The translations under genes were made by a program, and so were the position numbers. DNA of 32,000 bases from Candidatus Saccharimonadota bacterium (lineage in GTDB: Bacteria; Patescibacteriota; Gracilibacteria; BD1-5; UBA2023): assembly GCA_042852035.1 (NCBI GenBank), contig BAAFHK010000001.1, positions 630,001 through 662,000 on the forward strand, written 5' to 3'. Shown piece after piece: positions 15,452 through 17,355 of the stretch. The first letter of the stretch is position 1; each line of letters begins with the position of its first letter. Under the pieces are notes generated by a model. It was not told where the DNA came from. It did no database searches and saw only the letters and a program-made list of their open reading frames with translations.

Positions 15452-15742
15452 ATGGCAAAAGTCACAAAAAAAGCCCTCATGATCGAAGCATTGAACAAAT
15501 ATACTCCGAAACAAATAGAAAATGCAGAGTATTGCGAGATGAATGCTGTAGCAAAAGATGGAAATATAGTAGTATGATGCAATTTTCATCTCAGAGCAAA
15601 AGATAGACTCTCGAAATATGAGAGAATACTCAAAACTATCAGAAGTGCCCTTCATAATACCACTCCCGATGAGAGCAATAAAAGACCTATGGTAGATACA
15701 AGTAGTGAGAATATTCGGTTAATTTCTATTAAACTAAAATAA
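15452..15742 (+). CDS. Hypothetical protein X1, 96 aa
   Basis: ATG lies 11 nt after the hsdR stop. The frame is open for 96 codons in AT-rich DNA with one TGA and ends at TAA 15740-15742. No recognisable motif. Confidence 0.45.
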
Positions 15743-15766
15743 AAGTTTATACCCTAAAAAATCATT

Positions 15767-16750
15767 ATGTTTACAAAGATAAGTAATTATTTTTATGAAT
15801 TCAATATTCAGAAAGAAGGGAGGACTTCAAGTGAATTACTTGATATAATATATGAAGAAATCGATAAACCCCAATATCGTTTAGGGGTAGATTATAATTG
15901 AGCCCAAATAAAAACTAATATAGTAAATATCTCCCAAAGCTTGACCAATCCAATCGATGGGGAGTATTGAATAGTTTTTCATAAATGAACATATTGAATA
16001 TGACTGAATTTTATTGATAAAGATTTTAACTACACCAAAGAATTAAAACAAAAAGATACTTATTGAAGAAACTCATGAAAGAGCTTAACTGAAACTGAAG
16101 AGGTTCATTACTATGGAGGATTAAAAATATGAATATCTTCTGACGAGGAATATATAGTTTGAATAATTTCTGTGCCTAGAATTCGAGACGGCATAACTTC
16201 AGAGGAGGTCTCAGATTTATTAAAATCAATATTTGAAGCCATTTTCAAAGGAAAATGATATTATAGATGACTATTCCCCGCCTATTCTCAATGAGAAATA
16301 ATGCAAATGTTTTCCCAGTCAACTGAAATTAACTTTATAAAAGATGTGGGAGTGAGTGATCTTATATGACGCATTCATCAAAAATCAATTTGAAATCCCA
16401 TAGTTTCAGTAAGAATGAAAATTACTGATCCTTCCCAAACCAAAGAATGGTGAAACTACTTCTGAAATTTATTGTGAAAGAAGGCTACCGATGAACAAAT
16501 TAGAAAAGAATTATCTCCATTACGAAAATTTAGCATCAAAACTGGAAAGTCTACATTTAATCTGGATTCGGATGAATTAAAAATGAAAAATATAATTGAT
16601 ACCACCGATTATATTTACACCTTACCCGTTAAAGAAAGATGAGATTTTCAAATAAATAATGTTATATTCATCAGGAACAACTTTAAAAATTTCTTTTCTA
16701 AAAAACCATGGGTAAAGAAAACTCAGCAGAAACCTTCAAATATAGATTAA
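15767..16750 (+). CDS. Hypothetical protein X2, 327 aa, extremely TGA(Gly)-rich
   Basis: I parsed the frame codon by codon from ATG 15767 to TAA 16748-16750. It has 327 codons with no TAA or TAG despite sample lines near 25% GC, and 18 in-frame TGAs. It is invisible in the standard-code ORF track. I recognise no motif. Confidence 0.65.
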
Positions 16751-17355
16751 TACTCAATCTTAGTATTATTTATTACGTATTCCGAAAGCAATTTTTTGGA
16801 CGCAATAAATTTATATTTTTAGTTTTTCCATTAATAATTAGTTGTATAATCGTAGCTTATGAGCTATATATCGACATTTTTAATCCAGCTAAAATTAGCT
16901 TAATCGTGACGATTATATCACTCATAGCTTGAATGTTATTAAACTTCTTAGTGCTAATTCTAACAGACAAATGAAGTATTCTCTATACAGAAGGCATCAA
17001 GGAAGCTTATGCGATTCTAGAGGGAAGATTTGATAATCAGTGAGATCCGATAAGGATAAATTATTTTGAATTTATTTATAATAAGATTTTTTTTATAATT
17101 CTATTATCTATATCTTTTATATTAGTTTATATCATTAATGATATTGGTGTCTTTCAAAAAATTTCCATAAACATGCATGCTCAATTTGTAAATAATCAAT
17201 TTTGTAAAGATTATCCAATCTATTTTAAGTACATAAAAGATTTTGGATACGGGATATACATATATTTTATAATGTTTTACTTTATTAATTTGCTATACTT
17301 AGTGCAAAAATTAATAATCTTACTAACCTCAAAATATAATGGGCAAAAGAAATAA
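16708..17355 (+). CDS. Hypothetical integral membrane protein X3, 215 aa, 4-5 predicted TM helices
   Basis: Track ORFs 16708-16932 and 17173-17355 share a frame and join through three TGAs. Hydrophobic runs are NLSIIYYVF, FIFLVFPLIISCIIVAY, ISLIVTIISLIAGMLLNFLVLIL, IFFIILLSISFILVYII and GIYIYFIMFYFINLLYLV. It overlaps X2 by 43 nt and hsdS by 17 nt. Confidence 0.65.

Follow-up and report, generated by a model that had tools for sequence, protein, structure and literature searches.

[quoted passage not shown] No characterized defense protein related to X2 or X3 by sequence or by confident structure was found in the libraries searched, and the defense function is a candidate assignment through guilt by association. 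To our knowledge, the defense systems of CPR/Patescibacteria are almost unexplored, in part because UGA recoding breaks standard gene calling. X2-X3 has no detectable relatives beyond a handful of recoded genomes and behaves like mobile defense cargo with Type I R-M operons as its target. Should the pair be functional, it would contribute a new immune module linked to the membrane, would be the second natural example, after PrrC, of an accessory system wired to restriction enzymes, and would mean that recoded lineages keep a private defense gene pool.

A recoded cassette between hsdR and hsdS

The window is the whole stretch of DNA that was analyzed, 32,000 nucleotides in length. Open reading frames (ORFs) were called with TAA and TAG as the sole stops and translated with genetic code 25, in which TGA is read as Gly. 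Positions 15452 to 17355, between hsdR and hsdS, hold X1 (96 amino acids [aa]), X2 (327 aa), and X3 (215 aa), and the operon is laid out as follows.

12567..15440, + strand: hsdR, Type I restriction subunit, about 957 aa, with Pfam matches; start codon uncertain, possibly ATG 12624
15452..15742, + strand: X1, soluble orphan, 96 aa (GAB0174747.1)
15767..16750, + strand: X2, soluble alpha/beta orphan, 327 aa (GAB0174748.1)
16708..17355, + strand: X3, four-TM membrane protein, 215 aa (GAB0174749.1)
17339..18706, + strand: hsdS, Type I specificity subunit, 455 aa (Pfam Methylase_S)
18716..19795, + strand: Y, AT-rich orphan between hsdS and hsdM, 359 aa (GAB0174751.1)
19804..21279, + strand: hsdM, Type I methyltransferase subunit, 491 aa (Pfam N6_Mtase, HsdM_N)

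Pfam matches were obtained for hsdR (ResIII, 4e-37; EcoEI_R_C, 3.9e-27; SWI2_SNF2, Helicase_C, and HSDR_N), for hsdS (Methylase_S, 4.7e-17, in two stretches), and for hsdM (N6_Mtase, 1.5e-70; HsdM_N, 3.9e-12). The flanking genes thus supply the HsdR helicase-nuclease, the HsdM N6-adenine methyltransferase, and the HsdS with two target-recognition domains by which a Type I R-M operon is recognized. When HsdS was aligned with that of the closest relative, lineage L001, the central and C-terminal regions were conserved and the target-recognition domains differed.

UGA has been reported to encode Gly in HHAS10 and its class (PMC11393006). The code 25 translations of X1, X2, and X3 are exactly those of NCBI entries GAB0174747 to GAB0174749 from HHAS10, the metagenome-assembled genome of an uncultured symbiont from activated sludge, each named "hypothetical protein." In-frame TGA codons number 18 in X2 and 14 in hsdR. 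At invariant Gly columns, TGA and GGN interchange across seven lineages, and TGA is never found opposite Trp. In public databases, X2-X3 genes are either translated with Trp where Gly belongs or chopped into fragments.

Calling with table 11 across the X1-X3 region gave only fragments, whereas calling with TAA and TAG alone gave long ORFs. The short fragments would suit chance ORFs in an AT-rich spacer or an artifact of the wrong code, a reading with a negligible probability that is refuted by the established code 25, by selection, and by homologs at 22 to 71% identity in eight lineages. Between the window and L001, dN/dS was 0.135 for X1, 0.107 for X2, and 0.10 for hsdR, and X3 had a pN of 0.24 and a pS of 0.81 (saturated). 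X1, X2, and X3 are real genes under purifying selection, with dN/dS of about 0.1, like that of hsdR.

X2 and X3 as the conserved unit

X2 lies directly upstream of X3 in all eight lineages, every one of them TGA recoded, and the order of soluble gene and then membrane gene holds in 8 of 8 loci; the pairing persists even where identity falls to 22 to 31%. The three-gene module of the earlier note is not borne out. X1 is 79% identical to a 96-aa ORF at the same position in L001 and is absent from L002, L008, L010, L012, and L013, and the three-gene model was rejected for a two-gene core of X2 and X3 because X1 is limited to the window and L001. X1 had no family match in Pfam, PADLOC, NCBIfam, or PHROGs. 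It is a lineage-specific add-on outside the conserved core and may be a small accessory protein, perhaps with a regulatory or antitoxin role, that the module does not need.

The contexts of the pair are listed by lineage.

Window and L001: hsdR-X1-X2-X3-hsdS
L002: hsdR-DUF3800-PDC-M04B-...-X2-X3-...-hsdS-AbiEi-AbiEii-hsdM
L008: hsdR-X2-X3
L012: hsdR-hsdM-PemK-hsdS-X2-X3
L013: AAA_13/PDC-S06-X2-X3; hsd operon not visible around the pair
L010: 310-aa unknown gene and divergent ABC-F gene upstream of the pair; hsd operon not visible

X2-X3 is embedded in an hsd operon in the window, L001, L002, L008, and L012. Of 6 independent informative contexts, 4 place the pair in a Type I R-M operon, at differing positions and with unrelated HsdR (binomial P of about 2e-6, assuming a 2% chance rate), within a small sample of eight lineages, several on short contigs and one, L011, on a contig too short to inform. 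The co-cargo found beside X2-X3 comprises AbiEi/AbiEii, a pair of DUF3800 and PDC-M04B (PDC-M04-like), PemK, and PDC-S06, all known or candidate defense or toxin genes, and this recurrence in such company makes the genomic association of X2-X3 with defense, as the earlier note suggested, a strong one.

The pairwise identities of X2 and X3 co-vary (r = 0.84 over 21 pairs), and the correlation of X2/X3 identity with HsdR identity is not significant (Spearman 0.27). The window and L002 are 26% identical in HsdR, 43% in X2, and 50% in X3; L002 and L008 are 74% identical in HsdR, 44% in X2, and 45% in X3. X2 and X3 are inherited as a unit that moves between unrelated hsd operons.

These relationships also bear on a rather unlikely reading in which X2-X3 is a nonautonomous Type I R-M accessory with no independent defense function, X3 anchoring Hsd at the membrane and X2 bridging or regulating it, for example in action at the site of DNA uptake or injection or in the control of restriction alleviation. 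The pair does recur inside hsd operons, where it is apparently cotranscribed; promoter and terminator counts in the window equaled the shuffled expectation, with no enrichment. Some Type I enzymes are reportedly membrane associated in Escherichia coli (work said to be that of Holubova et al.), which we count in its favor. HHAS10 encodes type IV pili and ComEC (PMC11393006), which points the same way. However, a specific physical adaptor should coevolve, yet X2/X3 identity does not follow HsdR identity, the partner HsdR proteins are just 26 to 37% identical to each other, and both R-S-M and R-M-S orders occur. In addition, the pairs in L010 and L013 adjoin non-hsd genes, and most Type I systems function without such proteins.

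Composition and history of the cassette

The GC content is 0.34 in X1, 0.29 in X2, and 0.25 in X3 versus 0.41 in hsdR and 0.43 in hsdM, and GC3 is 0.25 in the cassette versus 0.37 to 0.42 in the hsd genes. TGA supplies 67% of the Gly codons in X2, 27% in hsdR, and 10% in hsdM. The composition of the cassette is foreign, its low GC3 and high TGA-Gly usage resembling those of low-GC relatives. The AT richness that had been noticed from hand counts of about 23 to 25% GC is confirmed by the computed values, but X1 and X2 are less extreme than those counts.

In the window, X2 and X3 overlap by 43 nt and the end of X3 overlaps the start of hsdS by 17 nt, which the earlier note took as a sign of translational coupling. 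Spacing from X2 to X3 is tight throughout (−62 to +10 nt across the eight loci), but the overlaps themselves are not conserved, as L001 keeps neither. Acquisition by insertion, which had also been proposed, was not a recent event, because the window and L001 inherited the cassette from a shared ancestor and synonymous sites between them are saturated; scars are undetectable, with only short chance repeats around the cassette.

Foreign composition would also be expected of a selfish cargo, either addiction or toxin-antitoxin-like or a phage-derived superinfection-exclusion "moron," for which R-M operons are permissive hot spots and which does not cooperate in restriction. Inter-hsd gaps elsewhere hold PemK and AbiEi/AbiEii, and the X2 fold has been seen in phage and prophage proteins only (see below). 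X2 carries a premature in-frame TAA in two lineages, in which the module is therefore either decaying or not needed; such stops are typical of costly toxic cargo. We nevertheless consider such an origin unlikely, since the cassette is not bordered by a transposase, an integrase, or repeats and no viral contig bearing the X2-X3 pair was found in the IMG/VR scan. Both genes have stayed under purifying selection for so long that synonymous divergence is saturated, which argues for a benefit to the host, and superinfection exclusion would in practice count as defense anyway.

Sequence and structure of X2 and X3

Invariant residues of X2 include F9, Y10, F12, K85, E111, E112, R138, Y173, S174, T186, and E187. 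A Walker A reading of its "GRNSGKS" was rejected, as the spacing is wrong and the Ser is not conserved. None of the seven X2 homologs had a Pfam match at E ≤ 1, X2 had no PHROG match, and a search of its profile against PDB sequences returned a stretch of SMARCA5 alone (domain E of 0.24), judged to be chance. The AlphaFold2 (AF2) model of X2 is of moderate confidence (pLDDT 63.6, pTM 0.62). In Foldseek searches with this model, none of the best 50 PDB matches listed reached E ≤ 0.001, and a Bet v 1/START-like fold was dismissed as not significant (E ≥ 0.012, TM ≤ 0.41, RMSD 9 to 14 Å).

The only significant structural matches of the X2 model were four uncharacterized phage proteins in BFVD (A0A8S5S8L2, A0A6J5Q1Z2, A0A8S5MSR5, and A0A8S5QGP5). 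These proteins are of similar size (277 to 322 aa) and align over their full lengths at a Foldseek probability of 1.00 (E of 2.5e-8 to 1.8e-5), but they differ from X2 in sequence (10 to 12% identity), and by geometry the matches are weak (TM-scores of 0.30 to 0.40, RMSD of 10.6 to 14.7 Å). Confinement of the X2 fold to uncharacterized phage and prophage proteins of like size fits cargo exchanged between phages and defense loci.

X3 has four strongly hydrophobic TM segments, at residues 35 to 53, 66 to 84, 127 to 145, and 188 to 206, plus an N-terminal hydrophobic helix. Positive clusters lie at R26-K34 and at the C terminus, and we infer an N-in/C-in orientation. Conservation is strongest in the cytoplasmic loop and in TM2 (GG..LLNF), whose motif IISLIGGxLLNFLxLI contains the invariant G75 and N79 and is accompanied by a juxtamembrane QF. 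The AF2 model, again of moderate confidence (pLDDT 67.5), is all helical, with loops that are helices or disorder and lack beta structure. The description of X3 as a small polytopic membrane protein thus stands on both hydropathy and the model, for which the best PDB fold match had an E of 6, with no analog.

A rare family without characterized relatives

The earlier statement that X1-X3 have no recognizable motif was confirmed by searches of Pfam, PADLOC, NCBIfam, and PHROGs, none of which gave a match above noise; nor did searches of the same four libraries with seven X2 and three X3 homologs. X1, X2, X3, and Y had no match in PADLOC-DB v2 (5027 HMMs) at E ≤ 1, and divergent X2 and X3 homologs had none at E ≤ 0.001. 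In an exhaustive HMMER search, run with a single protein as the query to keep out Trp-contaminated profiles, the family amounted to about nine members in 1.8 to 5.8 billion proteins (1.84 billion representative proteins). Scans with X2 and X3 alignments of 185,579 GTDB species-representative genomes, JGI metagenomes, and IMG/VR DNA, each using two peptide patterns with Gly back-translated as GGN, gave no confirmed relatives. A GC-normal X2 homolog had no tblastn match in phages and plasmids.

Failure to find defense homology is compatible with a lineage-specific housekeeping membrane complex, such as one for transport or the envelope of episymbiotic Patescibacteria, linked to hsd by descent. 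Orphan membrane proteins are abundant in CPR genomes, and elsewhere the window carries housekeeping genes (RND efflux, HtpX, RluB, and TPM) and no defense island. However, the family is extremely patchy and rare, with about nine proteins and no species-representative genome, and the pair shuffles among unrelated R-M operons. Together with the nonsense alleles and foreign composition, this rarity and shuffling make a core function ill-fitting, and we regard it as quite improbable.

Comparison with known systems and proposed mechanism

In RexAB, a phage exclusion (abortive infection) system of lambda, a soluble gene (about 280 to 330 aa) precedes a small four-TM membrane gene, whose product works as an ion channel once activated. 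X2-X3 is alike in gene order, TM count, and proposed logic, that of a cytoplasmic sensor gating a membrane partner. At 200 to 220 aa, X3 is larger than RexB, and it carries a 40-residue cytoplasmic loop that is conserved; RexAB sits in the prophage immunity region, whereas X2-X3 is chromosomal and within hsd operons. No RexA or RexB homology was found in PADLOC, PHROGs, PDB sequences, or PDB folds, libraries that may not hold Rex entries.

PrrC is R-M linked and fires once a phage protein neutralizes the Type I enzyme; work on it is reportedly that of Levitz and Kaufmann, and the Campylobacter rlo genes are said to have been described as R-M-linked ORFs by Miller et al. in 2005. Like PrrC, RloC, and the rlo genes, X2-X3 is cargo lodged among the hsd genes of Type I operons, and the L013 pair adjoins AAA_13/PDC-S06. 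PrrC and RloC, however, are each one protein with an ABC-type (AAA_13-like) ATPase and a C-terminal nuclease, whereas X2 and X3 are two, one of them membrane borne, and Pfam detected no AAA_13, other ATPase, or anticodon-nuclease domain in X1, X2, or X3.

Kiwa, a defense complex embedded in the membrane, detects membrane perturbation (bioRxiv 10.1101/2023.02.26.530102). It resembles X2-X3 in pairing a cytosolic protein of about 310 aa with a membrane protein that has four TM helices and about 200 aa. The order kwaA (membrane) and then kwaB is the reverse of X2-X3. KwaB carries DUF4868 and a Rossmann-like domain, whereas X2 has neither signature (Pfam, seven homologs, E ≤ 1), and KwaA has an intracellular beta-barrel, in contrast to the X3 loops. 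No PADLOC match to Kiwa was obtained for X2 or X3, and none of the best 50 PDB folds listed matched at E ≤ 0.001.

If X2-X3 is a defense module, X2 may consist of two alpha/beta domains, its acidic/basic loop near residues 77 to 112 being highly conserved, and may dock on the conserved cytoplasmic loop of X3 (residues 86 to 124), an arrangement like that of RexAB or Kiwa. Under RexAB or PrrC logic, X2 in the infected cell would sense either a cue from the phage or that the Hsd complex had been disabled and would open or oligomerize X3, leading to membrane collapse. Under Kiwa logic, X3 would instead sense membrane perturbation at DNA entry, and X2 would be released or activated. A more specific version, which we consider doubtful, is that X2-X3 guards the Type I complex as a membrane-collapsing abortive-infection switch, confined to UGA-recoded Patescibacteria and fired when phage antirestriction proteins disable HsdRMS; it would combine PrrC-like logic with RexB-like output. 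If so, the spread of the pair among unrelated hsd operons would reflect selection for a restriction backup in tiny episymbiont genomes.

Other cargo in the hsd operons

The hsd operons of these organisms are cargo hot spots, with X2-X3, Y, AbiE, PemK, PDC-M04, and PDC-S06 in inter-hsd gaps. Y (GC of 0.25, GC3 of 0.19) is a separate cargo gene, apart from the X1-X3 cassette, and had no match in Pfam, PADLOC, NCBIfam, PHROGs, PDB, or, by tblastn, plasmids. HEPN RNases carry a conserved Rx4-6H motif in an all-alpha domain. No HEPN profile matched Y, in which "RNKNFH" near the C terminus agrees with Rx4H by eye only.

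Gene calls, genetic code, and composition of the hsd operon

Gene calling with table 11, the standard bacterial code, produced only short open reading frame (ORF) fragments in this region. With TAA and TAG as the only stops, the summed length of ORFs of at least 90 amino acids (aa) in the window rose about 4-fold, and an unbroken series of plus-strand ORFs extended from hsdR through hsdM:

12567-15440, +, hsdR, TAA/TAG-only ORF
15452-15742, +, X1, 96 aa
15767-16750, +, X2, 327 aa, with 18 in-frame TGA codons
16708-17355, +, X3, 215 aa
17339-18706, +, hsdS, TAA/TAG-only ORF
18716-19795, +, Y, a further orphan, 359 aa
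19804-21279, +, hsdM, TAA/TAG-only ORF

The translations of X1, X2, X3, and Y with code 25 (TGA as Gly) are identical to NCBI proteins GAB0174747, GAB0174748, GAB0174749, and GAB0174751, all labelled "hypothetical protein" and derived from MAG HHAS10 (Candidatus Altimarinota, Patescibacteria group). According to its genome paper, this organism lives in activated sludge as an episymbiont of Zoogloea, and Codetta assigned UGA=Gly to it and to its class, JAEDAM01 (PMC11393006). Independently of that paper, the X2 family uses TGA and GGN interchangeably at its five invariant Gly columns, with no TGA opposite Trp.

The flanking genes encode a Type I restriction-modification (R-M) system with an HsdR of the EcoEI_R_C type (Pfam). 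The window outside the operon is largely housekeeping (RND efflux, HtpX, RluB, TPM), and the cargo is therefore confined mostly to the inter-hsd gaps rather than to a large island. The sole exception among these flanks is a 258-aa ORF (25408-26184, minus strand) with a weak AbiEi match (PADLOC, E 1.9e-4); it is AT-rich (GC 0.31), uses TGA for 53% of its Gly codons, and has no evident AbiEii partner alongside. Either of two other plus-strand genes could be a further defence-related gene judging from sequence: a 775-aa AAA ATPase just 5' of hsdR (9452-11779) and a ResIII/DEAD helicase gene that continues past the window end (30324-32000), with weak PADLOC matches to PbeA and type IV DinG. Immediately beyond the 3' end of the hsd operon, the minus strand (21887-22786) encodes a membrane protein that resembles T4SS pilin (Pfam T4SS_pilin, 6e-20).

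The AT-richness that the earlier note had estimated by hand is real: GC is 0.34 in X1, 0.29 in X2, and 0.25 in X3, against 0.41 to 0.43 in hsdR and hsdM. Y, which fills the hsdS-hsdM gap, is similar (GC 0.25, GC3 0.19); GC3 is 0.19 to 0.25 across the cargo ORFs and 0.37 to 0.42 in hsdR/hsdM, and TGA supplies 67% of Gly codons in X2 against 10 to 27% in hsdM/hsdR. No repeats, integrase, or transposase were found beside the cassette. Matches to promoters and terminators were at background level only.

The order hsdR-X1-X2-X3-hsdS recurs on L001, a 4.4-kb contig of GCA_020049755.1, with protein identities of 77% (HsdR C terminus), 79% (X1), 67% (X2), and 65% (X3). Synonymous sites are saturated in this comparison; dN/dS is 0.135 for X1, 0.107 for X2, and 0.10 for hsdR, and X3 has a pN of 0.24 and a pS of 0.81. 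X1, X2, and X3 are thus real, constrained genes, and the shared order, saturated synonymous sites, and low dN/dS indicate that the cassette is older than the split between the two genomes and has been retained by selection. The overlaps taken earlier as a sign of translational coupling exist in the window (X2/X3, 43 nt; X3/hsdS, 17 nt) but are not kept in L001.

X2 and X3 form the conserved unit

An initial word-indexed protein search returned a single X2 homologue because the public protein set had rendered the other contigs in code 4, with Trp at each TGA. Database proteins P0002 and P0004-P0009 (contigs L001-L011) are such code 4 translations of code 25 contigs and would bias any profile made from them; contig L012 was translated with code 11 and is hence present as fragments. 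Further homologues were recovered with an X3 query, a mixed Gly/Trp alignment, and exhaustive phmmer against 1.84 billion representatives, giving eight lineages in total: the window, L001, L002-L005, L008/L009, L010, L011, L012, and L013.

An X2 homologue is followed by an X3 homologue in all eight, at a spacing of -62 to +10 nt, even in L011, where the two proteins are only 25% and 31% identical to those of the window. X1 is present in the window and L001 only. The co-occurrence expected for X2 and X3 is therefore borne out, whereas the proposed three-gene unit does not hold; the conserved unit is the X2-X3 pair. That the ORFs are an artefact is a reading of negligible probability, refuted by the code 25 match to NCBI proteins, the low dN/dS, and the homologues in eight lineages.

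Pairwise identities of X2 and X3 co-vary (r = 0.84, 21 pairs) and do not track HsdR identity. The window and L002 share 26% identity in HsdR, 43% in X2, and 50% in X3, and L002 and L008 share 74%, 44%, and 45%, with some HsdR values coming from short partial alignments. The pair thus moves jointly among Type I operons that are unrelated to one another. Given this absence of co-variation with HsdR, it is unlikely that the pair serves as a non-autonomous membrane tether or regulator of the Type I enzyme.

The family is rare, with five clusters among 5.8 billion proteins searched and seven hits in the 1.84 billion representatives. Scans with the patterns used returned no member from 185,579 species-representative genomes, from JGI metagenomes, or from IMG/VR, and the phage and plasmid collections gave no match. 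All members contain in-frame TGA. In two lineages of very low GC, the X2 homologue contains a single in-frame TAA, beyond which homology is clearly maintained:

L002, 6332-7261, X2 homologue, in-frame TAA at codon 265
L013, 3418-4377, X2 homologue, in-frame TAA at codon 72

The L002 allele is not a read error, since it occurs on 11 contigs from several runs. These codons could be recent nonsense mutations in a costly gene or sites of stop-codon readthrough. A housekeeping complex is improbable in light of the rarity of the family, its shuffling between operons, and the nonsense alleles.

Genomic contexts of the pair

Six independent contexts were informative, counting the window and L001 once:

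Window and L001: hsdR-X1-X2-X3-hsdS(-Y-hsdM)
L002: hsdR, DUF3800, PDC-M04B-like, three unnamed proteins (TM segments in some), X2, X3, 277-aa protein, hsdS, AbiEi, AbiEii, hsdM
L008: hsdR-X2-X3
L012: HTH, hsdR, hsdM, PemK/MazF toxin, hsdS, X2, X3
L013: AAA_13/PDC-S06 candidate defence gene in two pieces, then X2-X3
L010: divergent ABC-F ATPase gene, 310-aa unknown gene, X2-X3, with the contig end within X3

The pair lies inside an hsd operon in four of the six (P ~2e-6 by chance, with 2% as an assumed background), at another position in L012, where the operon order differs. The inter-hsd gaps are shared by X2-X3, AbiE, PemK, and PADLOC candidate systems, in keeping with the suggested link to R-M and defence genes. 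AbiEi/AbiEii in L002 and PemK in L012 occupy gaps equivalent to that of Y, and such gaps therefore appear to be hot spots for cargo. Y itself had no match in library, PDB, or plasmid searches; the string "ARNKNFHG" near its C terminus resembles the HEPN Rx4H motif on visual inspection only.

In L002, the DUF3800 and PDC-M04B-like gene plus the AbiEi/AbiEii pair (3275-4461 and 9956-11388) share the operon with X2-X3, giving at least three cargo modules with every subunit gene apparently intact. The L013 candidate gene directly 5' of X2-X3 (1066-3371) is broken into two ORFs that do not share a reading frame, as the result of a frameshift or of a fault in the assembly.

Protein features

X2 had been described as lacking a recognisable motif, and it has no match in Pfam, NCBIfam, PADLOC, or PHROGs (Pfam and PHROGs with seven intact or reconstructed homologues; PADLOC with the window copy and the divergent L011 and L012 copies), nor any relative among PDB sequences. 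Its AF2 model (pLDDT 63.6, pTM 0.62) has two alpha/beta halves. Some of the most highly conserved sequence (NF.DK, YG..SGK, EE.H.Y) falls in a loop of low model confidence (77-111), and the invariant K85, E111, E112, R138, and E187 lie within or near this loop. Foldseek returned nothing from the PDB at E <= 0.001; a Bet v 1/START-like fold was rejected because the top matches were too weak (E >= 0.012, TM <= 0.41). The sole significant structural relatives were four uncharacterised BFVD phage proteins of X2-like length (277 to 322 aa), from gut-virome or Caudovirales sources (A0A8S5S8L2, A0A6J5Q1Z2, A0A8S5MSR5, and A0A8S5QGP5). They match over the full length (E 2.5e-8 to 1.8e-5, probability 1.00), with TM just 0.30 to 0.40 and identity of 10 to 12%. 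These model-based matches are a lead on X2 rather than an assignment of function, and the family and gene neighbours of the four proteins could point to what X2 does.

X3 is, as first read, a small polytopic membrane protein, with four strong hydrophobic segments, an N-terminal hydrophobic helix, and a wholly helical AF2 model that has no analogue among PDB folds. Positive charges cluster ahead of TM1 and at the C terminus, which suggests an N-in/C-in topology by the positive-inside rule. Conservation peaks in TM2 (IISLIGGxLLNFLxLI, with G75 and N79 invariant), in a juxtamembrane (R/K)KQF motif, and in the post-TM2 loop (S90, L92, and Y101).

Possible function and relation to known systems

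We infer the function of X2-X3 from genomic context alone. An accessory defence module is the best fit because of the obligate, tight pairing of a soluble with a four-TM protein, the foreign composition, the movement between Type I operons, and the sharing of gaps with other systems; we put the chance that this reading is correct at about even. Selfish toxin-antitoxin-like or phage-moron cargo is a doubtful alternative, slightly less probable than the tether or regulator. An accessory defence module could operate in either of two ways, both compatible with the data and each considerably less certain than the module itself. In a RexAB- or PrrC-like version, X2 would sense a phage cue or a neutralised Hsd complex and X3 would collapse the membrane; in a Kiwa-like version, X3 would detect a disturbance of the membrane as DNA enters, with X2 acting in the cytoplasm.

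RexAB has the same gene order and a four-TM partner. Kiwa is likewise similar in architecture (four-TM KwaA and ~310-aa KwaB) and is defined by DUF4868, a Rossmann-like fold, and an intracellular beta-barrel in KwaA (bioRxiv 10.1101/2023.02.26.530102); its gene order, however, is opposite, the X3 model has no beta-barrel, and X2 has no DUF4868. PrrC/RloC and the Campylobacter "rlo" genes resemble X2-X3 in genomic behaviour, and X2-X3 lacks AAA_13. As there was also no PADLOC or PDB fold match, X2-X3 was not filed under any of these systems; its mode of action may match one of theirs, but it is a member of none.

X2-X3 is a new pair of protein families, although its general kind is known, namely, R-M-linked, membrane-associated accessory cargo; so far it occurs only in UGA=Gly Patescibacteria. 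Its specialist interest lies in having been embedded repeatedly in hsd operons that are unrelated and in its restriction to recoded genomes, but orphan genes are common in defence loci.
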